DNA from: an uncultured Rikenella sp. | GTDB taxonomy: Bacteria; Bacteroidota; Bacteroidia; Bacteroidales; VadinHA17 | Reading direction: 5' to 3' | NCBI GenBank assembly: GCA_964411345.1 | Contig: CAYPKP010000001.1 | Coordinates: 85,906 to 149,905 of the forward strand | Length of the DNA stretch: 64,000 nt | Part shown: positions 5,027-27,130 of the stretch, piece after piece | Numbering within the stretch: position 1 is the stretch's first letter | Layout: each line of letters starts with the position of its first letter | The notes under the pieces: generated by a model | What the model was told of the DNA's origin: nothing | The model's input: only the letters and a program-made list of their open reading frames with translations | The model's database searches: none | Translations under genes and position numbers: made by a program

Positions 5027-6067
5027 ATGGGGAAGAAGGTAAAAAACAAAGACATTGCCGCAAGACTTGGTCTTTCGGGCACATTGGTATCATTGGTGCT
5101 GAACAATAAGGCCGATCAGCACGGAATCAAGAAAGAGACACAGGAGCGGGTTCTTGCAGTTGCAAGGCAGATGGGCTATTTCAGCGCAGCAGCCGAGAAG
5201 GGCGAAACAGTTCCGGCGGAAGAGAAGCCGGGCATCATCGGGATGATCGTACCCTCCATGAATGATCCTTTCATTTATGAGATCACTCCCTATCTTCAGA
5301 AGGCATTCTCGAGCATAGGCCTCGGGTTCTCGGTCTTCACCAGGGATCCTGACGACATGCGTTTCAACAGGCTTACAACCTCGCTGAAGAAGTTCTTCAG
5401 CGGGATGATTCTTGTTGGCAATGCTGCCGATGACAGCGTGGTGAGGGCTCTGAGCAGGGATTCATACCCGATTGTTCTTCTTGAAAAGCGGATGAGAAGG
5501 ATGAGGGTAAACACCGTATGCACTGACAGGATAGCCGGTGCCGGCCTGATGACGCAGCATCTCACCTCGCTCGGGCTTAAGAACCTGCTGATTGTTTCGG
5601 GTGAAGATACGGCATCCTATGACAAGGAGATGCTTGATGAGCTGAAGGCAGCCACAAAGAAATCGAAGAATTATGATTCGGTACATTTTACGGTTGCCCG
5701 GCTGCCAAAGGCTGGAGAGAAGTTTGACTTCGCCTCCATAGAGAATTTTCTGAGGCCGCCGCACCGCAGCGATGCGATCATGGTCATCAACTCTCCCCTG
5801 GTCTTCCCGCTTTACCAGGCATTGCAGGAAAAAAACATCCGCATACCTCAGGATGTTGCGCTGGTATCGATGGAGGACGGCATTGGGTTTGACCTCATCG
5901 GCACCCCGGTGACAAGACTGCGCAGGCCTCTCTCTGCAATGTCTCTGAAGGTTGCCAATATTGTCTGGTCAGAAGTGAAAAACCAGGGTAAGAGCAAATA
6001 CAAGCGCCAGGTGAACATGTCTCCGGAGCTTGTCGTCAGGAGCAGTTGCGGCTCTTACGCAAAATAG
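5027..6067 (+). CDS. LacI family transcriptional regulator
   Basis: N-terminal HTH (IAARLGLSGTLVSLVLNN) followed by a periplasmic-binding-protein-like sugar-binding fold. The 346-aa length is typical of LacI/GalR regulators. Confidence 0.9.
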   Translation: MGKKVKNKDIAARLGLSGTLVSLVLNNKADQHGIKKETQERVLAVARQMGYFSAAAEKGETVPAEEKPGIIGMIVPSMNDPFIYEITPYLQKAFSSIGLGFSVFTRDPDDMRFNRLTTSLKKFFSGMILVGNAADDSVVRALSRDSYPIVLLEKRMRRMRVNTVCTDRIAGAGLMTQHLTSLGLKNLLIVSGEDTASYDKEMLDELKAATKKSKNYDSVHFTVARLPKAGEKFDFASIENFLRPPHRSDAIMVINSPLVFPLYQALQEKNIRIPQDVALVSMEDGIGFDLIGTPVTRLRRPLSAMSLKVANIVWSEVKNQGKSKYKRQVNMSPELVVRSSCGSYAK

Positions 6068-6073
6068 ACTTCA

Positions 6074-8683
6074 ATGAAACGGATCTTCAGGCTGCAGGCG
6101 CTGATCGCCATGGCAGTGTTGCTCTCTTGCAGCAACGGCAACCTTATTGTCGACAAGTCACTGATGGATGAGCTCGCTGCTGATTACGGCGCCCGCGCGG
6201 AAACATACTCCTCAACCCGCGGCGATCTCTTTGCCATGGCTGACACCCTCAGTAATGATGCATTGAAGGTTGCCGTTCAGTTCCTTCTGGCATACATGCC
6301 GCTGAGTGACCTCTCTGCCGTTGAACCCGGATATGTGGTGGATAATGCCGCCGTCGCCCTTCGCACCAGGGAGGAGATGCCCTGGGGGCCGGGTATCCCG
6401 CTGGATGTTTTCCTCCATTTTGTCCTGCCTCCGAGAGTAAACAATGAAAACCCCGACAACTTCAGGCAGGTATGTTATGACGAGCTGAAAGAGCGGGTCT
6501 CGGGTCTGGACATGATTGAGGCTGCCCTGGAGATAAACCGGTGGTGCCAGGAGAAGGTCTCGTACCAGGCTGCCGACTCTCGCACTTCAGCACCACTGGC
6601 AACGATGCTCTCCGCCCGCGGGCGCTGCGGCGAGGAGTCTACTTTGACTGTCTCGGCCCTGCGCACTGTGGGCATACCGGCACGGCAGGTATACACTCCC
6701 CGGTGGGCCCATACTGACGACAACCATGCCTGGGTGGAGTTCATGGCTGAAGGAGAGTGGCATTATCTGGGGGCCTGCGAACCTGAACCGGTGCCTGACA
6801 GAGGCTGGTTCACCGAGCCGGCGAGAAGAGCCATGCTGGTTCATACCAAGGCCTTTGGCAGGTACAGGGGCAATGAGAAGGTGATAAGGGAAGAACCTCT
6901 CTTTGCGGAGATCAATACGCTGGACAGATATGCAGTGACCAGGGAACTGAGAGTATTGGTGACTGACAGCGCAGGCTTGCCGGTACCGGAAGCTGAGGCA
7001 GGGTACATGATTTACAACTATGCTGAGTTTTATCCGCTGGCCAGGCTGAAATGCGACCGCTCGGGAGAGTGCTCACTGACAACGGGAATGGGGTCACTCC
7101 TCATCTGGGCCGGTGACGGAGAGCGTCACGGATTCGCTCTTGCCTCCCCGGCGGATACACTGGCAGTAGTCTCCATATCATCAAGGCAGAAGGAGGAGAC
7201 GGTCAGTCTCGACATCTCGGTGCCGCCGGCCCTGACACCCCTGCCTGGCATTGACGGGGAACTGGTGCGGCAGAATAACATTGTCGTAAGAAGAGGAGAC
7301 AGCATCCGAAACGCTTATATCAGCTCATGGATGAAAGATGTGTCAGTGGAAGAGCTGGCTGCCGGAGCCGGAGTGACTCCCGAAAGGGTGAGGGAGATCC
7401 TCACTGCCTCAATGGGTAACTACAGGTCCGTCGCTGACTTCCTTGCCTCATCTGATGACAGGGGAGAGCTGGCAGTGAGCCTCCTTGAGAACATCTCTTC
7501 CAAGGACCTGCGTGACACACCGGCAGAGGTGCTCTCAGATCATCTTGTGAATGCGCCGGAACCGGATCCTGGTATTGACACAGGGATATATTACAGGTAT
7601 CTGCTGTCACCCCGTATCTCCACGGAGATCCTCTCTCCCTTCAGGAGCGCCCTCGGGAATATCCCTTCTGCAATGATGGAGAAATTCAGGTCTGACCCTT
7701 CCTGCATAACCGGGTGGGTCGATACTGTCATCACAATCACCGAAAGTGAGAACCACTACGGTACTCCTCTCACACCCGGAGGAGTGGTGAGATTGCGTCG
7801 TGCTGACAGTCATTCGCGAAGGATCTTTGCGGTGGCCCTCTCCAGGAGCGCCGGTGTCCCCGCCAGGCTGGAACCGGGTACGGGGAGGCCTCAGTACCAT
7901 GCAGACGGAGTATGGCATGACATGTGGTTTTCAGATGAAGTAAAGCCATCAGGATCAGTTGGTTACATTACCTTTAGTTCTGACCGCGATGATCCCGTAC
8001 CGGAATACCACGTCCATTTTTCCCTGGCAAGGATAGAGGATGGCAAGTATAATACCCTCGATTACGGGTACGGGAGAAAGTTGACTGAGATACCAAAGCT
8101 TATTCCCCTCGATCCCGGAATGTACATGCTTACTACAGGCAACAGGGATGATGACGGTAATGTGCTGGCGTCGGTAACCTTTTTCTCCCTGGCCCCGGGT
8201 GAGGAAAAGACGGTCGCTGTCCGGCCCCGTGAGCTGGAAGAGGTATCTGCACCGTCAGGCAAAGCAGACCTCACGGGTAAGTTGCGTCTCATCAGCGGCG
8301 AGCTGGTCACACCTCTCTCCGTGGCAGATAAGGGTTTGGTATTCATATGGATAGAACCGGGCAGGGAGCCTACGCGCCACATACTTAATGATCTCCCGCG
8401 TCTGAAGAGTGAGTTTGATGCCTGGGGCGGATACTTCATCATACTCACTGACCCTGATCGCACACCGCCCGGATTCGTCGCGGACCAGATCAGCGGCATA
8501 CCTGAGAGCACACTGTTCGCGGAAGACAGAGAGATGGCCTTCATGAGATCGGTGTTTGGCGGTGGCAGTGTCGAAAGACCCCTGCCTGTGGTTCTGTGCT
8601 GCGACAGCGAGGGTAATATACTCTTCTCCTCGGAGGGCTACCGGATAGGTACCGGAGAACAGATACTGAAGAAAATAAGATAG
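6074..8683 (+). CDS. transglutaminase-like (Png1/NGLY1-type core) lipoprotein with a degenerate second core and a C-terminal thioredoxin-like domain
   Basis: Lipoprotein signal (AVLLSCSNG). Papain-like transglutaminase core RGRCGEES...DDNHAWVEF...GEWHYLGACE. A second similar segment (ADSHSRRIFAVALSRSAGVPARL...GVWHDMWF) has Ser where the Cys would be. The C-terminal roughly 130 aa resembles a TlpA/redoxin fold without a CxxC motif. Confidence 0.75.
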   Translation: MKRIFRLQALIAMAVLLSCSNGNLIVDKSLMDELAADYGARAETYSSTRGDLFAMADTLSNDALKVAVQFLLAYMPLSDLSAVEPGYVVDNAAVALRTREEMPWGPGIPLDVFLHFVLPPRVNNENPDNFRQVCYDELKERVSGLDMIEAALEINRWCQEKVSYQAADSRTSAPLATMLSARGRCGEESTLTVSALRTVGIPARQVYTPRWAHTDDNHAWVEFMAEGEWHYLGACEPEPVPDRGWFTEPARRAMLVHTKAFGRYRGNEKVIREEPLFAEINTLDRYAVTRELRVLVTDSAGLPVPEAEAGYMIYNYAEFYPLARLKCDRSGECSLTTGMGSLLIWAGDGERHGFALASPADTLAVVSISSRQKEETVSLDISVPPALTPLPGIDGELVRQNNIVVRRGDSIRNAYISSWMKDVSVEELAAGAGVTPERVREILTASMGNYRSVADFLASSDDRGELAVSLLENISSKDLRDTPAEVLSDHLVNAPEPDPGIDTGIYYRYLLSPRISTEILSPFRSALGNIPSAMMEKFRSDPSCITGWVDTVITITESENHYGTPLTPGGVVRLRRADSHSRRIFAVALSRSAGVPARLEPGTGRPQYHADGVWHDMWFSDEVKPSGSVGYITFSSDRDDPVPEYHVHFSLARIEDGKYNTLDYGYGRKLTEIPKLIPLDPGMYMLTTGNRDDDGNVLASVTFFSLAPGEEKTVAVRPRELEEVSAPSGKADLTGKLRLISGELVTPLSVADKGLVFIWIEPGREPTRHILNDLPRLKSEFDAWGGYFIILTDPDRTPPGFVADQISGIPESTLFAEDREMAFMRSVFGGGSVERPLPVVLCCDSEGNILFSSEGYRIGTGEQILKKIR

Positions 8684-8689
8684 AGTGCC

Positions 8690-10885
8690 ATGATAAGAAA
8701 AGCTTTCCTGTTTGCGGCGCTGCCGCTTCTGATTGCCGTCGGATGCAGCTCTCCTTCACTGGATGATGTTACCGTATGGGTCGATCCCTTCATCGGTACC
8801 GCAGCACACGGGCACACCTTCCCGGGTGCCGCCACACCCTTCGGCATGGTGCAGCTCAGTCCTGACAACGGCACCTCCGGCTGGGACTGGTGTTCAGGAT
8901 ATCACTGGTCTGACTCGGTGATAGCCGGCTTCAGCCACACCCATCTGAGCGGCACCGGTATCGGGGATCTGTGTGACATTCTGTTCCTTCCTTCGATGCA
9001 TGAATTCACCCTGGAGCTGCCTGACAGCACGGCATCACTTGCAAAGATCAACAGGAGTCTCTTCTCTCACGAAGCTGAGCAGGCAAGACCGGGCTACTAT
9101 GCAGTAGCCCTTGCCAATGGTGTGAATGCAGAGCTTACCGTAACACCCCGGACCGGCATACAGCGATATACGGCCGTCGGTGCCGGGACAATGTATGTTC
9201 TCGTGGACCTGGGGTTTGCCATCAACTGGGACCGGCCTGCCGCTTGCAGCCTGCGATGGAACGGCTCTGCCCTGTCAGGCATGCGCATCTCCCAGGGGTG
9301 GGCTGAGAGGCAGTACCAGTACTTCTGGTCTCTCTTCTCGCTGACACCTGATTCCGTCGTTATGCTCAACGCGGGTATCCCGGCAGGTGATACGGCGGTT
9401 AGCGGGAGAAACATCGCTGCTATTCTCGCCTTTGATGTCCAGCAGGGAGATGAGTTGCTGATCAGGACCGGCATCTCGGCCGTCGATGAGGCCGGGGCAT
9501 CGGGCAACCTGAAAGCCGAATCTGAAGGCCGGGATTTTAATGCCGCAGCCGCAGCCGCCCGACAGGCATGGCAGAGAAGACTGAATGTCATAAGGGCAGA
9601 ATCGTCAGACAGCTCCGTGATGAAGGTATTCTACACCGCTCTCTATCATTCAATGATTGCACCGTCACTCTATTGTGACAGCGACGGCAGGTACAGGGGC
9701 ACCGACGGAGAGGTGCACACGGCGGAAGGGTTCACAAACTACAGTGTCTTCTCACTGTGGGATACCTACCGTGCAGCCCATCCGCTCTTTACCATCACGG
9801 CACCGGGAATGGTCCCTGACTTTATCAATACCATGCTCACCATCAGGGACCAGCAGGGCAAACTGCCCGTGTGGTCACTGGTAGGCAACGAGACGAACTG
9901 CATGATTGGCTACCATGCCGTACCTGTGCTGGCCGATGCGGTACATAAAAGAATGACGGGATTTGATTACGGGAGAGCCCTGGACGCTGCCATACACTCT
10001 GCCTCACTTGATTTCCGGGGCCTTGACCATTACAGGAGCTACGGCTATATACCTTCGGAGCTTGAGAATGAATCGGTGGCAAAAACCATGGAATATGCCA
10101 TTGACGACTGGTGCATCTCCCAGATGGCCGGTGACCTTGGGCAGCCAGATGTTGCCGGGGAGTTCCTTCTGCGGTCGCAAAACTACCGCAACCTGTTTGA
10201 CACAACCATCCTGTTTGTGCGCGGACGGATGAGTGACGGCAGCTGGCGGCCCGGGTACGATCCGCTCTATTCCCATCATACACGGTCGGATTTCACCGAA
10301 GGCAACGGCTGGCAGTACACATGGCTTGTGCCTCATGACGTGGAAGGCCTGTTATCTCTCTTCGGCAGCAGGGAGATATTCCTTGAGCGCCTCGACAGTC
10401 TTTTCAACGTGAACGAGGAGGTGAGGGGCGAAAATGCCTCACCTGACATCAGTGGCCTCATAGGCCAGTATGCACACGGTAATGAGCCATCCCACCATAT
10501 AGCCTATCTCTTCACCATGGCCGGTGAGCCGGAGAAGACTGAAACTACCGTTCGCAGGATAATGGATGAGATGTACACCGATGGCAAAGACGGGCTCTGC
10601 GGTAACGAGGACTGCGGACAGATGTCTGCATGGTATCTCTTTTCCGCTATGGGTTTCTACCCCGTCAACCCTGCTGACGGCAGGTTTATCCTGGGCAGTC
10701 CTGCGCTGGAACGGGCGGAAATCTCACTGCCCGAAGGAAAAATATTCACAGTCGTTGCTGAGAACAATTCAGCAACAAGGATAAATGTCGGTGACGTTTT
10801 CCTGAACGGAATAAAACTGGACCGTAACTATATCACCTATGAGGAGATAATGTCGGGAGGAGAGCTGAGGTTTACAATGAAATGA
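8690..10885 (+). CDS. glycoside hydrolase family 92 alpha-mannosidase (lipoprotein)
   Basis: Lipoprotein signal (LLIAVGCSS). GH92 signature stretches are present: FSHTHLSGTGIGD, GNEPSHHIAYLF and LCGNEDCGQMSAWY. The 731-aa length fits the family. Confidence 0.92.
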   Translation: MIRKAFLFAALPLLIAVGCSSPSLDDVTVWVDPFIGTAAHGHTFPGAATPFGMVQLSPDNGTSGWDWCSGYHWSDSVIAGFSHTHLSGTGIGDLCDILFLPSMHEFTLELPDSTASLAKINRSLFSHEAEQARPGYYAVALANGVNAELTVTPRTGIQRYTAVGAGTMYVLVDLGFAINWDRPAACSLRWNGSALSGMRISQGWAERQYQYFWSLFSLTPDSVVMLNAGIPAGDTAVSGRNIAAILAFDVQQGDELLIRTGISAVDEAGASGNLKAESEGRDFNAAAAAARQAWQRRLNVIRAESSDSSVMKVFYTALYHSMIAPSLYCDSDGRYRGTDGEVHTAEGFTNYSVFSLWDTYRAAHPLFTITAPGMVPDFINTMLTIRDQQGKLPVWSLVGNETNCMIGYHAVPVLADAVHKRMTGFDYGRALDAAIHSASLDFRGLDHYRSYGYIPSELENESVAKTMEYAIDDWCISQMAGDLGQPDVAGEFLLRSQNYRNLFDTTILFVRGRMSDGSWRPGYDPLYSHHTRSDFTEGNGWQYTWLVPHDVEGLLSLFGSREIFLERLDSLFNVNEEVRGENASPDISGLIGQYAHGNEPSHHIAYLFTMAGEPEKTETTVRRIMDEMYTDGKDGLCGNEDCGQMSAWYLFSAMGFYPVNPADGRFILGSPALERAEISLPEGKIFTVVAENNSATRINVGDVFLNGIKLDRNYITYEEIMSGGELRFTMK

Positions 10886-10940
10886 ACAGCACCGGCCGGT
10901 TTGTTGATAATTATCATCTGTCACTGATGATCTAATTCAT

Positions 10941-10948
10941 TACCTTTG
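10941..10948 (+). promoter_or_regulatory. Bacteroidota -7 promoter box (TACCTTTG) for the riboswitch-led B12 operon
   Basis: Exact match to the TAnnTTTG consensus. It lies about 6 nt upstream of the first base of the riboswitch P1 stem. Confidence 0.6.
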
Positions 10949-10953
10949 TATCA

Positions 10954-11138
10954 TTCTGGTGCTGCCGGTTTTTTCCGGCAGTGAAAAGGGAACCCTGTTG
11001 GAATCAGGGACAGTACCCGCTGCTGTGAAGCCTGTTCCGCCGTTTGCGGATCATTACAGCCGGAATTCCCGCCACTGTCTGCCAGCTGGCGGACGGGAAG
11101 GCCCGGTGAGTAGGGATAAGTCAGAAGACCTGCCAGAA
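10954..11138 (+). promoter_or_regulatory. cobalamin (AdoCbl) riboswitch
   Basis: The conserved core elements occur in order: AAAGGGAACCCTGTTGGAATCAGGGACAGTACCCGCTGCTGT, GCCACTG, GGGAAGGC, and the B12 box AGTCAGAAGACCTGCC at 11119-11134. P1 closes by pairing TTCTGG (10954-10959) with CCAGAA (11133-11138). It sits immediately upstream of a TonB-dependent receptor. Confidence 0.92.
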
Positions 11139-11175
11139 CGTGTCCTGTAACAGGGAGCTTTCGGGAATAAAAGTT

Positions 11176-13167
11176 ATGTTCAAAAGGTCATCTGCCTATA
11201 TTGTCCATTTAAAGGTGAGCCGCAATGCCCTGCATGCTGCACTGCTGTCACTGTCATTGTCCGTGGCAACGCAGGCCGGAGCACAGGATATGTTCACCGG
11301 AGATACCATTACCATCACCGCTGTTACTGTAACTGCTACTGCTTCGGAAAGGCAGACACCCTACTCCGTTTTTGTGATTGATTCTGCCCTTATGGCCGGT
11401 CATATGGAGAGTGACCTGGCGTCACTGCTGATGTACGCCACTCCCCTGGCAGTAAAGCGTTACGGAAATCATGGTCTCGCTTCCGTGTCGGTGAGGGGAT
11501 TGCCCGGCAGTCATACAACGGTGAAATGGCATGGACTTACTGTCAATGCTGCAGGCAACGGATACACTGACTTTGCTCTCATCCCGCTCCAGGCAGCCTC
11601 ATCAGTGAAGATCACCCAGGGCGGCTATGACCTTAACGATGTATCGGGATCCATAGGAGGTAAGGTGGAACTCTCCTCAGAGCCTCTCTTTCAGACAGGG
11701 CTATACGGTTCAGTTGCGGCAGGGGCAGGCAGCTACGGTGACTACAGTGCTTCGGCAGTCACAGGCACAGGCAGTGAGTCCCTCTCGGCAAGGATGAGTC
11801 TGTGGGGCGAAAAGGCGAAGAATGATTTTCTCTTCATAAACGACAATAGCCCTGAAGGAGCTAAGGAGGAGCGAAGGGTCAACTCATCCTGTGCCTCGGG
11901 AGGCGCAGTTACAGACCTGGCATACAGATCCGGCAGCTCCACTGTTGCCGCGCACCTCTGGTACAGCAACTCGGAGCGGGAACTTCCGGGCCCGGTGACC
12001 ACTGTTCAGCAGGATTTTGGCGAGCGGCAGAGCGACAGGTCATTTCGCAGTGTGATCAGCTACTCCCTGGAGAAGGGAAAGGTTTCGGCGAGGGTAACAG
12101 CCGGAGGAGCCTCTGATGTAAACCTCTATTATCATGAGATTCCTGACTACAACGGTGACAACAGGTCGTCACTCCTGATGTTCAGCACCGCTCTTGCATA
12201 TCGTCTGAACGGAAAAGCCGAATTCGGCATCAATGCGGGAAATGAATACCAGAGCGCCCGGTCGCTTGGTTACTCAGACACCGAACGACGGAACCTCTTT
12301 TCAACATCTCTCTCCGCCAGGATCAATCCGGGAACAAGGGTGAGACTGCTGCTCCAGGCACGGCAGATGATAGTCACAGGAATGGTCATAAAACCGGAGT
12401 TTACGGCCGGGGCTGCAGTGGCACTCTCACCGGACGGCGCCCACCTGCTGAAAGCCAGCATTAGCCGCACTGCAAGGCTGCCGTGCCTCAATGACCTGTA
12501 TTGGGTTCCCGGCGGCAACAGCAGCCTGAGACATGAAAATGCCACAGGAGGTGAGGCATCATACTCTTATGTGATTATTGCCGCGTCAGGAATGAAGAAC
12601 AGCCTTGATCTTGCGCTCCACGCCAAACGGGTCAATGACCTGATACAATGGATCCCGGGTGTGACCGGAATATGGAGTGCCGAAAACGTCCGCAGTGTAA
12701 ATGTATACGGACTGGAGGGCAGAATAGGCTCTGAAGTGCCTTTTAATGAGCTGGTAATATCCTCTTATCTGAACTATGGCTTCACGCGCAGTGTGGTCGC
12801 CGCCTCTGAGATACCCAATGACAATGCGGTGGGAAGCCGGCTGATATATGTCCCGGGCAACCTGCTTAATTTGAATCTGGGAGTGCGCTGGAAGATGCTC
12901 AGGGCAGGAGTGACAGCGCTGTATCAGGACAGGCGCTTTACCACCTCGGACAACAGCGAATGGCTGCCCCCATCATTTCTTGCTGATGCAAAGGTGGGAG
13001 CAGTGCTCCCCGCAGGCAAGACAATAGTAGGAATAGAGCTTGGCACAAAAAATATCTTCAACAGCTCTTCGGAGAGTGTCCGCAATTACCCGATGCCGCT
13101 CCGGACCTTCAGCCTTAGATTAACCGTAAGTTTTACCGATAAAAACAAGAGCAATGAACAAGATTAG
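11176..13167 (+). CDS. btuB: TonB-dependent receptor, BtuB-like (vitamin B12/corrinoid)
   Basis: I chose ATG 11176 because the ORF-track GTG at 11140 abuts the riboswitch P1 stem. It has a signal peptide ending AGAQD, a plug domain (AVKRYGNHGLASVSVRGL) and a roughly 660-aa barrel of the small BtuB class. It is the first gene after the cobalamin riboswitch. Confidence 0.88.
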   Translation: MFKRSSAYIVHLKVSRNALHAALLSLSLSVATQAGAQDMFTGDTITITAVTVTATASERQTPYSVFVIDSALMAGHMESDLASLLMYATPLAVKRYGNHGLASVSVRGLPGSHTTVKWHGLTVNAAGNGYTDFALIPLQAASSVKITQGGYDLNDVSGSIGGKVELSSEPLFQTGLYGSVAAGAGSYGDYSASAVTGTGSESLSARMSLWGEKAKNDFLFINDNSPEGAKEERRVNSSCASGGAVTDLAYRSGSSTVAAHLWYSNSERELPGPVTTVQQDFGERQSDRSFRSVISYSLEKGKVSARVTAGGASDVNLYYHEIPDYNGDNRSSLLMFSTALAYRLNGKAEFGINAGNEYQSARSLGYSDTERRNLFSTSLSARINPGTRVRLLLQARQMIVTGMVIKPEFTAGAAVALSPDGAHLLKASISRTARLPCLNDLYWVPGGNSSLRHENATGGEASYSYVIIAASGMKNSLDLALHAKRVNDLIQWIPGVTGIWSAENVRSVNVYGLEGRIGSEVPFNELVISSYLNYGFTRSVVAASEIPNDNAVGSRLIYVPGNLLNLNLGVRWKMLRAGVTALYQDRRFTTSDNSEWLPPSFLADAKVGAVLPAGKTIVGIELGTKNIFNSSSESVRNYPMPLRTFSLRLTVSFTDKNKSNEQD

Positions 13168-14179
13168 GTTGATGGCCTTCCTGGTGCCGATAATATTCAT
13201 TTCCTGCGAGGGAAACAATGTCGAGCCAGGGCTCTTTCCGCAGGGAGAAGGAATGTTTATTCTTAATGAGGGCAATTTCATGGCCGGTAACGGGACAGTC
13301 TCCTTTTACAGCCTGGAGACGGGTGAGATCTACAACGACCTCTTCAGGACCATGAACGGCAGACCCCTGGGGGATGTTCCCACCTTCATCGCAACAGACG
13401 GCACCACAGGATACATCATAGTCAACAATTCAGGTACCCTGGAGGCTGTTGACATGCTTACCATGGAGAGTCTCGGTACGGTTACCGGACTCAGCTCTCC
13501 CCGGCAGATGGCAATCAGCGGTCGTAAAGCCTATATCAGTTCCATCGCCTCCGAAGAGCTGACCGTCATTGACCTTGATCTTCTTGAGGTGACCGGTTAC
13601 ATTGATATCGGATGCACCAGCGAGGCAACAGTTATCTCTGGCGGGGTACTGTTCGCTTCAAACTGGGTGGCCGGTGACCGGATTGTGGTTGTCGATCTTG
13701 AAACCGAAGAACTCATTGGCTCTGTGACGGCAGGAACAGAGCCGGAGAGCATGGTGATTGACAAAAACGGCAAGCTATGGGTGCTCTGCACAGGCGGATA
13801 TATGCAGGATCTTCCAAAATTAGTCAGGATAAACAGCGTTACCTATGAAAAGGAGAGTGAAATGATCTTCGGTTCAGTGTCGGACTATCCTGCTTCGCTG
13901 ACCCTCAACGGCACCGGTGACACCCTCTACTGGCTTCATGAAGGTGTCAGGAGGATGCCGGTCAGCGCCGCCTCACTTCCCGCTGAAGCTTTCATAGAGC
14001 AGGGGGAGAGGCTCTTCTATGATCTTGCGACAGCACCCGGCGGGCGGGTTTTTGTCACAGATGCCATTGATTACCAGCAGAAGGGCGACCTGCTGATTTT
14101 CAACAGCCTTGGGGAACTTGTAGATACTGAAAAGGCAGGAATTATCCCCGGTTTCATGCGCTATATGAAGGAGTGGTAA
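13154..14179 (+). CDS. surface beta-propeller lipoprotein (YncE/DUF5074-like), B12-locus accessory
   Basis: Lipoprotein signal (PIIFISCEG). About 45-aa blade repeats are visible (G.LxVxD / G.xxV.D patterns). It overlaps the receptor gene by 14 nt. Confidence 0.7.
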   Translation: MNKIRLMAFLVPIIFISCEGNNVEPGLFPQGEGMFILNEGNFMAGNGTVSFYSLETGEIYNDLFRTMNGRPLGDVPTFIATDGTTGYIIVNNSGTLEAVDMLTMESLGTVTGLSSPRQMAISGRKAYISSIASEELTVIDLDLLEVTGYIDIGCTSEATVISGGVLFASNWVAGDRIVVVDLETEELIGSVTAGTEPESMVIDKNGKLWVLCTGGYMQDLPKLVRINSVTYEKESEMIFGSVSDYPASLTLNGTGDTLYWLHEGVRRMPVSAASLPAEAFIEQGERLFYDLATAPGGRVFVTDAIDYQQKGDLLIFNSLGELVDTEKAGIIPGFMRYMKEW

Positions 14180-14193
14180 GTTTTTGACTATTT

Positions 14194-16389
14194 TTGGTAA
14201 TACAATATAACAGATTGAAGGAAAGAGTATTCATAGCAGCGTTGTTCCTGTTCTTCTCCCTGGCACTCAAGGGTCAGATGGAATTTCCTGTTGGCAGTGC
14301 ACTCTATCCCGACATACGTAACTGGCATGAGATATCTGTTGATCCCCTGGAGGTGGAGGTGCTGCGGTCACTTGACCAGCCAAAGGATCAACCGTACAGG
14401 TTTGCCATCCCGGTGCCTGTGAATTTGACTCCGGAGAATGCGGGTTTTATAGTTCAGAGAGGCAATGAGACCGTATGGGTCATGCCTCTCTCATCAAAGG
14501 GAGCCCTGTCTCTCAATCTCATCCTGTCACCTTTCAGACTTCCCGAAGGATCATATATCTATGTATATGACCTCGAACGGAGGGTGGTCAGGGGGGCATT
14601 TACGGCAGAGAGCGGTGCGGGCAGGGTGACTATGCCGGTTATGCCTCTTCCGGGTGACAGGATGGTCCTGGAGTGTCATTTCCCGGGCGGTTCAGTTCCT
14701 GCCGGTGCCATTGGAATCAAGCAGGTGGCGCATGACTTTGCGGGCTTTTTTGAGCTTGATGGTGTCAAGGATATCTATTTCGGCCGGTCAGGAAGCTGCG
14801 AAACGGATCTCAGATGTTCCACCAACAGTACCTACCTGACCGCAAGCCGGTCAGTGGTGCGGCTGCTGGTGGCAGGCGCAGAGCTGTGTACGGGTGTGAT
14901 GGTCAACAACACGGGAAGTGAGTACAAGGCCTATGTGCTCACTGCCAACCACTGCATTGACACCCCAACCCTGGCAGATGAAACGGTATTCGTTTTCAAC
15001 TATGCCAGTCCCTGGTGTGACGGTCCTGACGTTACAGGCGCACACTCCCTGACGGGGTCGATACTGCGTGCAACAAATCCTGATGTTGACTTCACCCTGG
15101 TGGAGCTGCTGCAGTTTCCTCCGCTGGTTTACAGGCCCTGGTTCGCAGGATGGGACGTAACCGCCTCAGTCCCCTCCAGCACCTTTACCCTTCATCACCC
15201 TGAAGGTGATGTCATGAAGATTACCATTGATGACAACAGTCCTATAACTGCCTCTTATCCTGTATCAGGGTATGCAGTCAACAGTTTCTGGCGCATTCTG
15301 AGATGGGAGCTGGGGGCAACAGAGCCCGGCTCATCAGGAGGGCCGCTCTTTGACCAGAACGGCAGGGTCCGGGGGACTCTCACCGGCGGAAGTGCCACAT
15401 GTGCGGAACCGACAAATGACTTTTATGCAAAGATCAGCCGGATGTTCAATATCACCACCATCACCTCCACCCATCTCAGGCCCTGGCTCGATCCCGTTTC
15501 ATCAGGTGCCACAGTAGCCGGGGGACGCGATCCGTATGCCTACAACCTCTCTCTTGCTGACACGCTCAATAATTTGCCTCTCTCAGACCCCGGCACTGCC
15601 GATACCTATGTCCCACCCGGTTGGGGATACTCAACCGGCAATAACTCTGACGGACTCAGGAGATATGCTGAATATTTCCCATTTGTCGGAACAGGTGAGA
15701 TAGCATGGGTACAATTGAAGGTGGCTGCGGTCTCCTGGCTCTCGTCGGTTGACTCGCTGCGTGTTTTTGTCCTGGGCGGCGGCGGCGTTCCCGGAGCAAC
15801 TATGGCCTCACGCACGATCCGGTTGACAGAGGTGAAGGCCAGTGCAGAGCTGCAGATCGATTTCGGTCAGACGGTAAAGGTCACCGGACCCTATTATACC
15901 GGTTATGAGGTGTACTACAGGAGCGGCATGATGCTGCCGCAGCCTCAGTTCGCCGTGAAGCATTCAGATGCATGGCCTCTCGATTCATACAACACGGCGT
16001 GGTTCAGCAACGGAACCTCCTGGCTGCCGTTCACACAGCATCCCACATTCCCGAAGCCAGTATCACTGGGCATCAGTGTGGTGATGGTTGACAATACGAT
16101 CCTTAACAATATTGAGGATCCCGAAAAGGAGACACCCCCCCTGAAGGTCTTTCCAAACCCGTTCATCTCCGACATCTGTTTCGAGCTTGACGGGAGAGGC
16201 GTGACTGAGACTTCGTTAAGCCTGTGGGACAACTCGGGGAAGGTTGTCTATGCCGGAGAATACCGCAACATATTCCCGGGGATCCTTCCCGTGGAGCTCT
16301 CCTGGCTTACCGCCGGCATATATCACTACAGTCTCAGGAACGATTCGGTTCTTTATACCGGCACACTGATAAAGGCCGATTCCAGGTAA
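14194..16389 (+). CDS. secreted S1-family (chymotrypsin-fold) serine endopeptidase with T9SS C-terminal sorting domain
   Basis: Signal peptide (FIAALFLFFSLALKGQ). The catalytic triad context is LTANHCID, DVDFTLVEL and TEPGSSGGPLF. The last roughly 80 aa match the Por secretion tail pattern (KVFPNPFISDICFEL...GIYHYSL...LIK). The start is TTG at 14194, and an alternative TTG lies 8 codons downstream. Confidence 0.8.
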   Translation: MVIQYNRLKERVFIAALFLFFSLALKGQMEFPVGSALYPDIRNWHEISVDPLEVEVLRSLDQPKDQPYRFAIPVPVNLTPENAGFIVQRGNETVWVMPLSSKGALSLNLILSPFRLPEGSYIYVYDLERRVVRGAFTAESGAGRVTMPVMPLPGDRMVLECHFPGGSVPAGAIGIKQVAHDFAGFFELDGVKDIYFGRSGSCETDLRCSTNSTYLTASRSVVRLLVAGAELCTGVMVNNTGSEYKAYVLTANHCIDTPTLADETVFVFNYASPWCDGPDVTGAHSLTGSILRATNPDVDFTLVELLQFPPLVYRPWFAGWDVTASVPSSTFTLHHPEGDVMKITIDDNSPITASYPVSGYAVNSFWRILRWELGATEPGSSGGPLFDQNGRVRGTLTGGSATCAEPTNDFYAKISRMFNITTITSTHLRPWLDPVSSGATVAGGRDPYAYNLSLADTLNNLPLSDPGTADTYVPPGWGYSTGNNSDGLRRYAEYFPFVGTGEIAWVQLKVAAVSWLSSVDSLRVFVLGGGGVPGATMASRTIRLTEVKASAELQIDFGQTVKVTGPYYTGYEVYYRSGMMLPQPQFAVKHSDAWPLDSYNTAWFSNGTSWLPFTQHPTFPKPVSLGISVVMVDNTILNNIEDPEKETPPLKVFPNPFISDICFELDGRGVTETSLSLWDNSGKVVYAGEYRNIFPGILPVELSWLTAGIYHYSLRNDSVLYTGTLIKADSR

Positions 16390-17522
16390 TGAGAGTTTTC
16401 TGTTTCATCACAGCATTGGCACTGATCCTCTTTTCATGCCGCAGCGGCAGTGAAAGCAGGGTAAAGCAGAACACCCGGCTTTCTCCTGCCTCTTCCAGGC
16501 TCATCATTGAAGAGAAGGAGAATTATTACAGGGTGGTGATACGTGATCCGTGGCAGAATACCCGGGGGACTGAGCTCGAATATTTTCTTCTTGCGCGCGG
16601 AGAGACCCTGCCCGGGACTCTTGACACGGCAAGGGTGATCCGCGTGCCGGTTGAGAGGATGATCTGCATGTCAACCACCCATGTTGCCATGCTCTCCGCG
16701 CTTGGTGCAACTGATCTGCTGGCAGGCATTTCCGGTGCAAACCTGCTCTATGATACCCTTATCCGTGAAGCCGTCGCCAGCGGGTCGGTACGTGATGTCG
16801 GATACGAGGGAAATCTCAACAATGAACTGATCGTTGCCCTCAAGCCGGACCTGGTGATGGCCTACGGTGTTGCGGATCCGTCGGCGGGTCAGCTGGGGAA
16901 GCTCTCATCGCTTGGTGTCAGGGTGATATACAATGCAGATTACCTGGAGGAGCATCCGCTTGCACGTGCTGCCTGGATAAGGCTCTTCGGCCTGCTGACA
17001 GGCCGGAAGGAGAAGGCTGACAGTCTGTTTGCCGAAGTATCGTTACGATACACCGATCTCGCGGCAAGAGTCGGGGAGAATGCAGGTCAACGGCCTTCCG
17101 TGCTGCTGGGCGCACCGTGGGAGGATGTATGGTATGTCTCACCTGCCAACTCATACACCGGGAGGCTTATAGAAGATGCCGGCGGTGACTATCTCTTCTC
17201 TGACCTGACCGAAGCCAATTCGGTTCCCTATTCAGTGGAAGCTGTATTCAGGCGTGCCGCTGATGCTGACTTCTGGATAAATCCAGGTACTGCGGAGAGC
17301 CTTGAAGATATCAGCGCTGCCGACCACCGTCTCAGCCGCCTGCCGGTATGCCGTGAAGGGCGGGTGTGGAACAACAGGAAAAGGATGACACCTGCAGGAG
17401 GCAATGACTACTGGGAGACAGCCGTAGTTCGTCCTGACATCCTGCTAATGGATATGGTTTCCATCCTGCATCCTGAGATGCTTCCCGGCTACGTGCACTA
17501 CTTCTACAGGAGGCTGGAATGA
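16389..17522 (+). CDS. btuF: ABC transporter periplasmic substrate-binding protein, BtuF/FecB-type
   Basis: The ATG sits in a TAATG overlap with the protease stop codon. Lipoprotein signal (LILFSCRSG). It has a class III (helical backbone) PBP architecture and lies next to FecCD-type permease and ATPase genes. The ORF-track extension to 16224 is rejected. Confidence 0.85.
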   Translation: MRVFCFITALALILFSCRSGSESRVKQNTRLSPASSRLIIEEKENYYRVVIRDPWQNTRGTELEYFLLARGETLPGTLDTARVIRVPVERMICMSTTHVAMLSALGATDLLAGISGANLLYDTLIREAVASGSVRDVGYEGNLNNELIVALKPDLVMAYGVADPSAGQLGKLSSLGVRVIYNADYLEEHPLARAAWIRLFGLLTGRKEKADSLFAEVSLRYTDLAARVGENAGQRPSVLLGAPWEDVWYVSPANSYTGRLIEDAGGDYLFSDLTEANSVPYSVEAVFRRAADADFWINPGTAESLEDISAADHRLSRLPVCREGRVWNNRKRMTPAGGNDYWETAVVRPDILLMDMVSILHPEMLPGYVHYFYRRLE

Positions 17523-18559
17523 GAGACCGGTTACCATCCCTTAATCTTTCCCTGACGATGACCGGGTTGTTGCTGGTCACACTGCTGCTCTTCTGTGCTG
17601 ATCTTCTTTTTGGAGGCACGCCTGTTGGGGCTGCGGATGTTGTCAGGGCTCTTTTTGGAGCGGGGTCACCGGAGAGTGAGATCATAGTGATGGAGTTTCG
17701 CCTTCCCAGGGCCCTCACGGCAGTCATTGCCGGGGCTGCGCTATCTGTCAGCGGGCTGATTATGCAGACCCTCTTCCGCAATCCTCTTGCCGGTCCTGAT
17801 GTGCTGGGCATAAGCTCAGGCGCCGGCCTCGGCGTAGCAGTCACAGTACTTACCCTCTCGCCTCTGTTTGCCTTCTCTGCAGGCAGCCCCCTGCAGGGAT
17901 GGAGCATGATCCTTGCTGCCTGGGCCGGCGCCGGGACGGTGATGGTGATCATCATGGCGGTCTCCTCCCGCATGCGTGACATAATGACGGTGCTGATTGT
18001 CGGTCTGATGCTCGCCAGTGCCATCTCTGCCGTGGTGAGCCTGATGCAGTATTTCAGCAATGAGGCGATGCTGAGGACATACGTGATATGGACAATGGGC
18101 AACCTTGGCAATATATCATGGCAGCAGCTCAGGGCATTGACCATAGCTGTCCTGGCAGGCATGATGCTGGCCTTTGTGATGGTCAAGTCCCTGAATGCAA
18201 TGCTGATGGGAGACACCTTCTCCCGTACCGTTGGCGTGCCCATGCGCAGTACGAGGCTGATGCTTCTTGCTGCAGCCAGTATTCTGGCCGGCAGCGTAAC
18301 GGCATTCTGCGGGCCCCTGGCCTTCATAGGAGTTGCGGTGCCTCACGTGGCACGACTGCTCTTCAGAACAACCGATCACCGCACACTCATGCCCGGTACG
18401 GCACTCTGCGGTGCTGCGATACTGCTGGCGAGCGACCTCATCTCCACGGCACCGGGCGGCGGGCGCATCATTCCGGTAAACACCGTCACATCACTGATCG
18501 GGATACCTGTTGTGCTGTGGATAATACTCGGCAGGAACGCAATGGGAGGGAGGCGATGA
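17519..18559 (+). CDS. btuC: FecCD-family ABC permease (B12/iron-siderophore type)
   Basis: 346 aa with about 9-10 TM helices. The start overlaps the upstream stop by 4 nt. The conserved FecCD region is RLPRALTAVIAGAALSVSGLIMQTLFRNPLAGPDVLGISSGAG. Confidence 0.92.
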   Translation: MRDRLPSLNLSLTMTGLLLVTLLLFCADLLFGGTPVGAADVVRALFGAGSPESEIIVMEFRLPRALTAVIAGAALSVSGLIMQTLFRNPLAGPDVLGISSGAGLGVAVTVLTLSPLFAFSAGSPLQGWSMILAAWAGAGTVMVIIMAVSSRMRDIMTVLIVGLMLASAISAVVSLMQYFSNEAMLRTYVIWTMGNLGNISWQQLRALTIAVLAGMMLAFVMVKSLNAMLMGDTFSRTVGVPMRSTRLMLLAAASILAGSVTAFCGPLAFIGVAVPHVARLLFRTTDHRTLMPGTALCGAAILLASDLISTAPGGGRIIPVNTVTSLIGIPVVLWIILGRNAMGGRR

Positions 18560-19563
18560 AGGAAAGAGGAGTTGTGGTTGCCGAGACCCATGATCTTACA
18601 ATCGGTTACTCATCGCGCCGCCGGTGCGTCAGGGTCATGGAGCATCTCTCCGTCAGTGCAGGAGCAGGTGAGCTCGTGGCTCTCATAGGCCGTAACGGTG
18701 CCGGCAAGAGCACTCTGCTGAGGACCCTGGTGTCACTACAGCCTCCTGTTGAGGGAACCATCCGGCTGAACGGAAGAGACCTCCAGGCAATCGGCAGCGC
18801 CATGCTGCCCAGGATGGTCAGCTTCACCTCCACAGAGCCTGTGGCTGAGCGTAATATTACGGTACGCGAGGCAGTGTCACTGGGACGTTTTCCCTATACC
18901 AACTGGATCGGCACCATGACGGCCGCTGACAGGGAGGCGGTTGACCTTGCTCTTGAAGACACCGGCATGCTGGCGCTTGCCGGTCGCAGGCTCGACAGCA
19001 TTTCCGACGGCGAGAGACAGAGGACACTCATAGCACGGTCGCTGGCACAGGATACTGATTTGCTGGTCATGGATGAACCAACGGCGTTTCTTGATCTGCC
19101 TTCGCGATATGGCATCGTAAACCTGCTGAGAAAGCTGACCAGGGAAAAGGGTAAATGCGTTGTCTATTCTACCCATGACCTCGACACGGCACTCAACGAG
19201 GCTGACAGGATATGGCTTATGCACGGCGACGGCATCACTGAAGGCGCCCCGGAAGACCTGATACTGTCGGGCACCATGGCTCATGCCTTTGAGAGCCCCC
19301 TGCTCGCCTTCAGCAGCAAGGAAGGCACCTTCAGCTTTGTAAGAGGAAAGAGGAGCGGCATAGCGCTCACGGGCGAGGCCCCTGCCCTGAGCCTTACAGA
19401 AAAGGCTCTTGGCAGATGTGGATACACCGTGGATCAGAAGGCCCCTGTGAAGATTACGGTCAGCAGAGAGAACGAGGGTTGGCAATGGACGCTTACAGAA
19501 GGCCCGGAATCAATATGTTATCATACATTGTATGATCTGATGGTTCACCTGTCTGAAGAGTGA
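18556..19563 (+). CDS. btuD: ABC transporter ATP-binding protein (BtuD/FepC-like) with about 80-aa C-terminal extension
   Basis: ATG 18556 forms an ATGA overlap with the permease stop. Walker A is GRNGAGKST, the ABC signature is ISDGERQR and Walker B is LLVMDEPT. The upstream 156 codons of the track ORF overlap the permease out of frame and are rejected. Confidence 0.9.
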   Translation: MKERGVVVAETHDLTIGYSSRRRCVRVMEHLSVSAGAGELVALIGRNGAGKSTLLRTLVSLQPPVEGTIRLNGRDLQAIGSAMLPRMVSFTSTEPVAERNITVREAVSLGRFPYTNWIGTMTAADREAVDLALEDTGMLALAGRRLDSISDGERQRTLIARSLAQDTDLLVMDEPTAFLDLPSRYGIVNLLRKLTREKGKCVVYSTHDLDTALNEADRIWLMHGDGITEGAPEDLILSGTMAHAFESPLLAFSSKEGTFSFVRGKRSGIALTGEAPALSLTEKALGRCGYTVDQKAPVKITVSRENEGWQWTLTEGPESICYHTLYDLMVHLSEE

Positions 19564-19646: not shown

Positions 19647-21074
19647 TTACTTACCGCTGAATTTTCTGTATGTTTCAATGAATGATGAAACATCTTCGGC
19701 AGCCAGCCGTTTGGCTATGATCTTCTTCTCCCTGTCGAGAATATAGATGAGAGGAGTGGAATCGACATTGTAAAAATAGTCAAACCGGCTCATCCGTTCA
19801 GGATCCCAGCCGTTTATCCAGCTGAGTCCGTGGTCAACAATGTACTTCTCCCATTTTTCCCTGTCGTGCTGGGTGCAAACGGCGAAGACCTCTATGCCCT
19901 TGTTCCTGTTCGCCTTGTAATAATCGCGCAGAAGGGGTGTGGCCACCTTGCAGTGGCCGCAGTCAGGCTCCCAGAAGTAGACTATTGTATAGTCAGCCTC
20001 AACGTCATAAAGAGAGACGTAATGGCCGGCAAAGGAGTTCATAAGAAGTTCCGGCGCCTTTTGTCCAATCAGGTTTGGTCTCAGCCTGCCGACTCTCTTT
20101 TCCAGTTCTGCAAGGTACTCCTTCGTTGCCCACGGGGCCTTGCCGGCCAGGTATACTTTATCTGCCAGGTGTACTACAACCGCGTCATGACCCATGATCT
20201 CACTTGAAGCGTACCTGTTCATGATCCAGACGGTCACGTACTGGTAGACATCGTCATTCACGGCGCTCTTTCCGAGGAGCCTGTCGGCCTCCATGATGAT
20301 GGAGTCGGGCATCTGGATGACCACCTGTCTGAAAAACTGCTCGAGCCTGCCGCCCAGTATCGGACTTCTTATAAGTCCGGGTTGGGTGAGGTCGACGTTA
20401 TCGAAGAAATGATCCTTATAATGGATGTACGAAAGCAGCCTGCTTACCGAGTCGCGGTTGGCCGTGCCGGGGGGGAGCACAGGAACATAAGGCTCGGGAG
20501 GAATGATTGATCTGGCGATTGCACCGAGAAGGGTTCCCCTGTTGGTTTCCGCAGTCTGATGAAGATACTCTTTCATCCTCTTCTCCTGGGCTGCAAGTTT
20601 CTCCTTCCGCAGAGCAGCCTCCTTCACGGAAAGGCTCGAATCCCTTAGTCCGGATGAAAGACTGACTGCCTCTTCCTGAAGCACCTTCCATTTTCTCTGA
20701 TATTCAAGGAACCTCTGGTTTTCATCTGAACCTTTGAAGGAGAGTGTCGCTCCCGGGTTTTTTACATCACATCTGATATCAAAATGCTGGTCCTCTCCCA
20801 CGAGGAATTCGAAGAAGGTATTTTGAGGAAGGACGATCATATAGACGCCGGGAGGCAGGCGGTCAGGACCTGTGAAGTTGCATCGGCCGCCATTGTCGGC
20901 AACCAGGCTGTCTCTGACATACTGCTGGGCTCCGACATGATATGCCAGTCTGATGCCGGAGTGCGGAGCACCGTCGACCGTTACGCTGATTGAGTGGCCG
21001 GGCTGCCCGTTCAGGACTCCGGCAAGAGAGATGAAAGCAATGATATATGTTGCTGCGAGGTGTCTGATGTTCAT
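19647..21074 (-). CDS. TlpA-family thiol:disulfide oxidoreductase (thioredoxin-like) with N-terminal accessory domains
   Basis: Signal peptide followed by a C-terminal redoxin domain with WEPDCGHC (a CxxC motif). The 475-aa length is typical of Bacteroidota DUF4369/DUF5106 plus thioredoxin fusions. Confidence 0.85.
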   Translation of the reverse strand: MNIRHLAATYIIAFISLAGVLNGQPGHSISVTVDGAPHSGIRLAYHVGAQQYVRDSLVADNGGRCNFTGPDRLPPGVYMIVLPQNTFFEFLVGEDQHFDIRCDVKNPGATLSFKGSDENQRFLEYQRKWKVLQEEAVSLSSGLRDSSLSVKEAALRKEKLAAQEKRMKEYLHQTAETNRGTLLGAIARSIIPPEPYVPVLPPGTANRDSVSRLLSYIHYKDHFFDNVDLTQPGLIRSPILGGRLEQFFRQVVIQMPDSIIMEADRLLGKSAVNDDVYQYVTVWIMNRYASSEIMGHDAVVVHLADKVYLAGKAPWATKEYLAELEKRVGRLRPNLIGQKAPELLMNSFAGHYVSLYDVEADYTIVYFWEPDCGHCKVATPLLRDYYKANRNKGIEVFAVCTQHDREKWEKYIVDHGLSWINGWDPERMSRFDYFYNVDSTPLIYILDREKKIIAKRLAAEDVSSFIETYRKFSGK

Positions 21075-27113: not shown

Positions 27114-27130
27114 CAACTATATCATTGCAC

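Follow-up and report, generated by a model that had tools for sequence, protein, structure and literature searches.

A 64,000-nucleotide stretch of DNA from an uncultured Rikenella sp. (Bacteroidales; contig CAYPKP010000001.1, positions 85,906 to 149,905), called the window in what follows, carries what by its sequence is a Bacteroidetes-type locus for the uptake of vitamin B12 and other corrinoids, plus one extra gene. On the evidence of family alignments and a structural model, the extra gene codes for a lysyl endopeptidase of the same type as Achromobacter protease I and Lys-C, and its place next to the genes for corrinoid transport is conserved in relatives that retain only about 30% identity. 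I propose that the protein is a catalytically competent, lysine-specific endopeptidase that serves as an accessory of corrinoid uptake, a proposal whose chance of being right I put slightly below even. A wider form of the idea seems to me a little less probable than that. It would make the family a dedicated corrinoid-liberating protease, widespread in uncultured environmental Bacteroidales and, by analogy, the corrinoid counterpart of the gingipain-HmuY-HmuR system of Porphyromonas gingivalis.

A B12 uptake locus and its additional gene

The locus begins with a cobalamin riboswitch and continues through the genes for a surface receptor, its lipoprotein partner, the peptidase and an ABC transporter. 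The coordinates are those of the window. ORF stands for open reading frame.

10940..11151, + strand: cobalamin riboswitch aptamer, RF00174 (matches the whole model at 93.2 bits, E 7.5e-22; gathering score 31.5)
10941..10948, + strand: putative Bacteroidetes-type -7 box, TACCTTTG, read off the sequence; fits TAnnTTTG
11176..13167, + strand: btuB, TonB-dependent corrinoid receptor (the ORF opens at GTG 11140; likely start ATG 11176)
13154..14179, + strand: btuG, surface lipoprotein of beta-propeller fold (lipobox ...FISC; DUF5074)
14194..16389, + strand: peptidase gene (731 codons from TTG 14194; likely start TTG 14215)
16389..17522, + strand: btuF, periplasmic binding protein with lipoprotein signal ...LFSC (Peripla_BP_2, 1e-19)
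17519..18559, + strand: btuC, ABC permease (FecCD, 4.5e-77)
18556..19563, + strand: btuD, ABC ATPase (ABC_tran, 4e-29)

TAnnTTTG is the -7 consensus of Bacteroidetes. The six ORFs from btuB to btuD all run in one direction 3' of the riboswitch, and they are tightly joined. The last 14 nt of btuB are also the first 14 of btuG, TAATG at 16387-16391 contains both the stop codon of the peptidase gene and the start codon of btuF, and the btuF/btuC and btuC/btuD junctions are each an ATGA overlap. TTG 14215 (MKERVFIAAL...) falls, in the alignment, at the position of the initiator Met of most homologues, so the gap between btuG and the peptidase gene is probably 35 nt and not 14. An earlier reading of this DNA, made from the sequence only, had listed the -7 box, the riboswitch, the gene order, the 14-nt overlap of receptor and lipoprotein genes, the TAATG at btuF and the ATGA at btuD, and all of these are reproduced here. 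Its 14-nt gap before the peptidase is correct when counted from TTG 14194 and becomes 35 nt from the likelier start.

The neighbours are identified with unequal firmness. What the sequence-only reading had called a propeller lipoprotein is BtuG itself: phmmer pairs it with the BtuG chains in crystal and cryo-EM structures of BtuB-BtuG from Bacteroides (8bmx_D, 8bn0, 8bmy/8bmz) at E 7.6e-64 to 2.4e-63. The btuB product has a plug domain and matches Bacteroides BtuB chains 8bmx_C (8e-45) and 8p98_A (1.6e-39). The best NCBIfam match of the btuC product is the BtuC model (1.2e-57), under that model's cut-off, and the btuF product matches BtuF structures weakly, at 1e-5, so the assignment of a substrate to BtuFCD rests on context.

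The extra gene belongs to the lysyl endopeptidase family

The 731-residue product divides as follows, where T9SS stands for the type IX secretion system and the model is the AlphaFold2 model described below.

14194..14274, + strand: signal peptide, residues 1-27 (residues 2-21 form a hydrophobic helix in the model; by inspection)
14275..14781, + strand: N-terminal beta-sandwich pro-domain, residues 28-196 (pLDDT 85-96; ends in a conserved K192-D193)
14782..15531, + strand: lysyl endopeptidase catalytic domain, residues 197-446 (phmmer, family profile, Foldseek)
14950-14952, + strand: codon of catalytic H253
15088-15090, + strand: codon of catalytic D299
15334-15336, + strand: codon of catalytic S381
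15418-15420, + strand: codon of D409
15532..16143, + strand: beta-sandwich accessory domain, residues 447-650 (pLDDT about 90)
16144..16389, + strand: T9SS type A C-terminal sorting domain, residues 651-731, with the stop codon (family profile, fold)

Residues 197-446 can be aligned over their whole length with positions 1-262 of the mature lysyl endopeptidases. Searched with phmmer, the protein matches Lysobacter Lys-C (4nsy) at 7.9e-32 and Achromobacter protease I (1arb) at 3.7e-28, and a profile built from 30 family members matches a lysyl endopeptidase in the PDB at 3.3e-49. Identity to Lys-C and protease I is about 30-32% across the whole mature domain. H253, D299 and S381 align with the catalytic triad of both structures. 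The motifs in which they lie, LTANHCID, DVDFTLVEL and GSSGGPLF, had been picked out beforehand as the triad of a chymotrypsin-type fold, and each falls on the catalytic His, Asp or Ser of the lysyl endopeptidases.

The alignment extends to the residues that make these enzymes what they are. D409 lies within TNDFY and corresponds to the Asp in the RSDQY of 1arb. This is Asp225 of protease I, which sits at the bottom of the S1 pocket and is the source of lysine specificity. C202, C208, C232, C254, C275 and C403 align with the six cysteines of the three disulfides of protease I, Cys6-216, Cys12-80 and Cys36-58. The model, made from 75 sequences of 28-85% identity, has a mean pLDDT of 87.6 and a pTM of 0.79. 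In Foldseek its catalytic domain superimposes on 4nsy_A with a TM score of 0.87 (2.2 Å root-mean-square deviation over 262 columns) and on 1arb with one of 0.86. It replaced an earlier AlphaFold model from 30 close sequences, in which pLDDT was 58, the catalytic domain was unusable and the Foldseek matches were generic beta-sandwiches.

H253, D299, S380/S381, D409, C202, C208, C275 and C403 are invariant in all 80 full-length homologues, and 77 of the 80 keep all three disulfides. The pair equivalent to Cys36-Cys58 (C232-C254) is the one that varies: L074 and L075 have other residues in place of both cysteines, L080 only in place of C254, and these proteins keep the other catalytic features. 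Conservation of this kind effectively rules out a pseudo-protease. It bears out the serine endopeptidase of the S1 type, with intact catalytic features, that the sequence-only reading had called, and the alignment adds the Lys-C type. By the same alignment, the enzyme probably cleaves after lysine.

Linkage to the Btu genes

If the peptidase belongs to corrinoid uptake, its gene should keep company with the Btu genes beyond this one genome. The sample consisted of 95 loci with 31-89% identity, of which metagenomes supplied 80, reference genomes 13 and exact look-up 2. Homologues of the five Btu proteins were located in them by tblastn. Adjacency to btuF was judged where at least 700 nt lay downstream and called when btuF began within 400 nt; btuG was judged where at least 1200 nt lay upstream. 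The family is large: of the clusters made at 90% identity, one query matched 566 and another 1017. All of the relatives come from uncultured metagenome-assembled genomes (MAGs) or metagenome contigs. Where organisms are named they are Bacteroidales or a Bacteroidia MAG, and the JGI label is often "lysyl endopeptidase".

btuF lies directly 3' of the peptidase gene in 62 of 74 loci. In one more it lies further off, behind a gene for a tetratricopeptide-repeat (TPR) protein, and in 11 it is absent. In 48 of 70 loci the end of the peptidase gene overlaps the start of btuF or is no more than 10 nt away from it. On the other side, btuG is directly 5' in 49 of 67 loci and btuB without btuG in 6, and the remaining loci have neither surface gene. 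The peptidases fall into 15 groups at about 55% identity, and at least 11 of these hold members linked to Btu genes. At about 30% identity to the window protein stands a second deep clade, in which four additional look-ups showed two arrangements. One has the order riboswitch-btuB-btuG-peptidase-TPR-btuFCD, interrupted in some loci by an opposite-strand oxidoreductase gene between btuG and the peptidase; the other, from a complete genome annotated as a MAG (CP070654.1, L097), reads LacI-peptidase-TPR-btuF-x-btuCD. The adjacency of peptidase and btu genes has thus outlasted several rearrangements that altered its surroundings. The sequence-only reading had asked how often such a peptidase occurs inside btu loci of other genomes, and these counts are the answer.

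The inserted genes in the second clade, numbered within each locus, are these.

L079, 10254-13922: TPR gene
L096, 10270-13296: TPR gene
L097, 10304-13438: TPR gene
L098, 10239-13898: TPR gene
L079, 6555-7874, - strand: GFO/IDH/MocA-family oxidoreductase between btuG and the peptidase gene
L096, 6571-7893, - strand: the same
L088, 1545-2867, - strand: the same, counted by the position and size of the ORF only

The TPR-repeat protein is 1000-1200 residues long, and the stop of its gene touches or overlaps the btuF start. Other loci vary in other ways. In one lineage at 63-68% identity (L021, L022, L027, L040, L052, L060) btuG is absent from the locus, and the peptidase gene follows riboswitch and btuB after a gap of about 95 nt. 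In L037 and L038 (about 5598-11680) an intact peptidase of 64% identity remains where btuB, most of btuG and btuFCD have gone. A 57-residue remnant of btuG is left, and a GH92 gene and a thioredoxin-like gene now directly flank the peptidase.

Regulation

A cobalamin riboswitch precedes btuB in all 14 of the tested loci that have btuB, the window included, and is found in none of the 8 tested loci that lack it (L037, L072, L085, L086, L089, L091, L094, L097). The tight packing of genes in the window favors a single transcript led by the riboswitch, and from the same packing it is likely that in this genome the peptidase is made only under B12 scarcity. The sequence-only reading had said as much in general terms, that the protein is expressed only when B12 is scarce. 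That is plausible here. It does not extend to the family, since several clades keep the peptidase and btuFCD without a riboswitch. In L079, L088 and L096, an opposite-strand gene separates btuBG from what follows, which takes the peptidase-TPR-btuFCD block off the riboswitch transcript.

Signals within the locus were sought with mixed success. The terminator scan found no terminator-like site in the short gaps flanking the peptidase gene, and the sole match nearby on the + strand, at 14035-14049, is inside btuG; the scan, which gave 10 sites in the region against a shuffle mean of 5.6 (sd 2.4), is uninformative. So is a sigma-70 promoter scan, whose model is of the wrong promoter type for this phylum. 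Folding of 11085-11200 (z -0.58) gave no clear terminator or start-sequestering hairpin that might serve as the expression platform of the riboswitch. The full promoter pattern TTTG-N17-23-TAnnTTTG was also tried. It occurs once in the window, a long way from the locus, which is no more than chance would give. There is one candidate for an internal promoter element:

14189..14196, + strand: TATTTTTG, possible internal -7 box just 5' of the likely peptidase start; putative, fits TAnnTTTG

This motif could be an internal promoter of the peptidase gene. Only 14 of 62 homologous loci have a TAnnTTTG motif in this position. It is not conserved across the family, and I treat it as a caveat and not as a finding.

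Predicted export and activation

The N-terminal hydrophobic helix agrees with the signal peptide that the sequence-only reading had proposed. Directly after it comes Gln28, invariant in 75 sequences; cleavage of the signal before Gln is a known habit of secreted proteins of Bacteroidetes. The pro-domain that follows closes with K192, conserved in at least 90% of sequences (Arg in 7 distant loci, a gap in 3), and with D193, which is invariant. The mature N-terminus of protease I aligns at G197, and K192-D193 ends four residues before it. It is plausible, given this position, that K192-D193 is a site of Lys-specific self-activation.

The C-terminal region is, by family-level evidence from profile and fold, a T9SS sorting domain. 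In the window protein alone it scores under the curated cut-offs (16.6 against 27 for PF18962, 20.3 against 23 for TIGR04183), and the earlier call of a T9SS domain therefore draws its support from the family. PF18962 is recorded on most homologues in precomputed matches, the family profile matches a T9SS C-terminal domain chain in the PDB (8glj_D) at E 2.3e-7, and the fold, modeled with pLDDT of about 90 over residues 650-727, resembles the C-terminal domain of mirolase (8qb1_A) with a TM score of 0.75 and a deviation of 1.8. Genes for the secretion machinery itself (porK/L/M/N, sprA, porU/V) were not found among the ten other window proteins scanned.

Between the protease and the sorting domain, residues 447-650 form a domain found also in T9SS-exported Peptidase_C10, PKD and Cleaved_Adhesin proteins. 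Its recurrence in unrelated cargo marks it as a general cargo module and not a B12-specific binder. Pfam and NCBIfam give no corrinoid-binding domain in any of the non-catalytic parts, and with the 447-650 module being generic, a hidden corrinoid-binding domain was rejected.

A proposed model for corrinoid release

I infer the following course of events from the locus and the protein, the substrate above all being conjecture. When B12 is low, the peptidase would, probably in this genome, be made along with BtuB, BtuG and BtuFCD, its gene being packed with theirs behind the riboswitch. The pre-pro-enzyme would pass through the inner membrane by Sec and lose its signal before Gln28, fold with the help of its N-terminal pro-domain, and be exported by the T9SS through its C-terminal domain, ending up anchored to the surface or released. 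A cut after conserved Lys192 would activate it. Outside the cell it would cleave corrinoid-carrying proteins after lysines, most likely the corrinoid enzymes and binders of other microbes. BtuG would then pick up the freed corrinoid or corrinoid-peptide and hand it to BtuB, and BtuFCD would complete the import.

The sequence-only reading had named haptocorrin and intrinsic-factor-like proteins among the candidate carriers. These are unlikely. Relatives with a named source come from sediment, fermentation, marine and biofilm habitats, and since these are not hosts, the corrinoid proteins of microbes are likelier candidates as substrate than haptocorrin or intrinsic factor.

Several observations count against the proposal. 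The linkage is firmest to btuFCD, which works at the inner membrane and in the periplasm, and not to btuBG, the surface part that would catch the corrinoid. In at least two clusters of homologues (2 and 3), and for some members of another, the peptidase gene has only unrelated genes around it (L083, L084, L086, L089, L091, L092). L037 and L038 kept an intact peptidase, so the enzyme has value without adjacent btu genes. L072, L085, L094 and L097 have peptidase and btuFCD with no riboswitch. The locus counts, 62 of 74 among them, are not phylogenetically independent. Finally, gut Bacteroides cope without such an enzyme: their BtuG-type binders reportedly take B12 from carriers by affinity alone (PMC6143338), so that a protease is not obviously needed.

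Alternative views

These same observations invite other explanations, the most serious of which is that the enzyme is a general extracellular protease, nutritional or housekeeping, that sits near btuFCD through inherited synteny and has no functional tie to corrinoids. The neighborhood is indeed conserved vertically: genes for LacI, transglutaminase-like and thioredoxin-like proteins and a glycosyltransferase flank the locus over many loci, and part of the linkage signal must be vertical inheritance, since these flanking genes are syntenic too. The standalone homologues, the survival of the peptidase in L037 and L038 and the generic nature of the 447-650 domain fit this view as well. What it does not readily explain is that linkage to btuF or btuFCD holds to about 30% identity despite insertion of TPR and oxidoreductase genes and despite loss of btuG or of btuBG together, or that stop and start so often overlap or nearly touch in the way typical of co-translated, functionally tied genes (the 48 of 70 loci given above). 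I judge it unlikely, though it deserves more weight than the others.

The protease might instead serve the maturation or turnover of the cell's own Btu surface machinery, trimming BtuG, the loops of BtuB or other surface lipoproteins, or clearing protein bound to them. It is located with btuG and btuB in most loci, and T9SS proteases of P. gingivalis process other surface proteins. The six loci with btuB and peptidase and no btuG, and the several with peptidase and btuFCD and neither surface gene, are hard to square with such a role; BtuF, BtuC and BtuD are out of reach of an enzyme exported by the T9SS; and the well-studied BtuBG complexes of Bacteroides work without one, none being mentioned in a 2026 review. 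This makes a maturation or turnover protease quite improbable. More improbable again is a weapon of interference that destroys the corrinoid binders (BtuG, BtuH and the like) that competitors carry on their surfaces or vesicles, so as to win the B12. All the evidence for corrinoid release would serve it equally, and competition for B12 through surface binders of very high affinity is documented in Bacteroides (PMC6143338, PMC10404256). It is, however, a special case of the carrier-protein idea, and nothing here separates the binders of competitors from other corrinoid proteins. As for an adhesin or binding protein built on a protease fold, the large non-catalytic beta-sandwich domains on either side of the protease would suit it, but pseudo-enzymes normally lose their triad, S1 Asp and cysteines, and here the triad, the Asp and four cysteines are kept by every homologue and the third disulfide pair by nearly all. 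Conservation of the catalytic residues effectively excludes a non-catalytic role, and I give it almost no credence.

Comparison with known systems

The proposed release of corrinoids by a secreted lysyl endopeptidase has to be set against systems that are better understood. The protein shares with protease I and Lys-C the triad, the S1 Asp, the three disulfides, the fold and about 30-32% identity over the mature domain. The precursor of protease I consists of a pro-region, a protease and a C-terminal extension, the same layout as in the window protein. The C-terminal extensions differ: that of the window protein is a beta-sandwich followed by a T9SS sorting domain, so its export route is a different one. 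It differs also in that its gene sits in a B12 uptake cluster, and its lysine specificity is a prediction. By its sequence, the enzyme adds to the lysyl endopeptidase family a new member, one that carries a T9SS export signal.

The B12 loci of Bacteroides thetaiotaomicron resemble that of the window in being led by a riboswitch, in their BtuB, strongly homologous BtuG (E 1e-63) and BtuFCD, and in the variable accessory genes between the core genes. There, the accessories BtuH, BtuK and BtuJ are corrinoid-binding lipoproteins, whereas the accessory in the window is an enzyme with a T9SS signal. The type of locus (riboswitch-btuBG-btuFCD) is thus known, and the kind of accessory gene is new. Word searches of that 2026 review, and of the paper on BtuH, gave no mention of a protease or T9SS cargo in a Btu locus; targeted full-text searches gave no link between a peptidase and B12 uptake loci; and DUF5074 appeared in only two unrelated papers. 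The sequence-only reading, which knew of no secreted protease in Bacteroides B12 loci, thus agrees with the searchable literature.

The closest functional analogue is found in P. gingivalis, where gingipains exported by the T9SS, the Lys-specific Kgp among them, strip haemoglobin of its haem and so supply the lipoprotein HmuY and the receptor HmuR (PMC3040768, PMC12094164). In both systems a T9SS protease would free a tetrapyrrole, which a lipoprotein hands over to a TonB-dependent receptor. The differences are that gingipains (Kgp, Rgp) are cysteine proteases of an unrelated fold, that the cofactor is haem and not a corrinoid, and that the system of P. gingivalis is proven by experiment while that of the window is deduced. 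The genes for the gingipains are not known to be part of the hmu operon. A second likeness comes from mammals, in which proteases of the stomach and pancreas detach B12 from haptocorrin and from the proteins of food before the next high-affinity binder takes it. There too, proteolysis of a carrier precedes hand-over, as a matter of host digestion and with no genetic coupling to a transporter. The idea of corrinoid release is a reasonable one and, so far as the searchable literature goes, new.

Neighboring genes

Three genes precede the riboswitch in the window, one follows btuD, and a further group lies beyond.

5027-6067: LacI-family regulator
6074-8683: 869-residue protein with a transglutaminase core
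8690-10885: GH92 glycosidase
19647-21074, - strand: 475-residue AhpC/TSA thioredoxin-like protein, convergent to btuD
25296-28906: two adjoining aconitase-family genes, 605 and 593 residues
28989-29062: tRNA

A LacI gene, usually with a transglutaminase-like gene, is also found 5' of the peptidase in distant loci (seen in L014, L015, L037, L072 and L097), even in L072 and L097, where btuB and btuG are absent. The thioredoxin-like gene is syntenic 3' of btuD in L014 and L015 as well, and its product there also matches DUF4369.

What release of corrinoids would mean

Most natural corrinoid is tightly bound to protein. Present models of B12 scavenging by bacteria begin at the free cofactor or at binders that work by affinity only. 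If the proposal is right, the protease adds a step upstream of these, the release of the cofactor from its carriers, and estimates of how much B12 is "available" would change for sediments, digesters and other communities rich in corrinoid enzymes. The case lends itself to test: the protease family is well understood, its partner BtuG can be produced recombinantly, and transfer of a corrinoid is a simple readout. The enzyme would represent a new functional class of component in B12 acquisition, by which cells harvest B12 and its analogues locked in the proteins of others. Read as a whole, the locus suggests that the bacteria that carry it may cut B12 free from other organisms' proteins before importing it.

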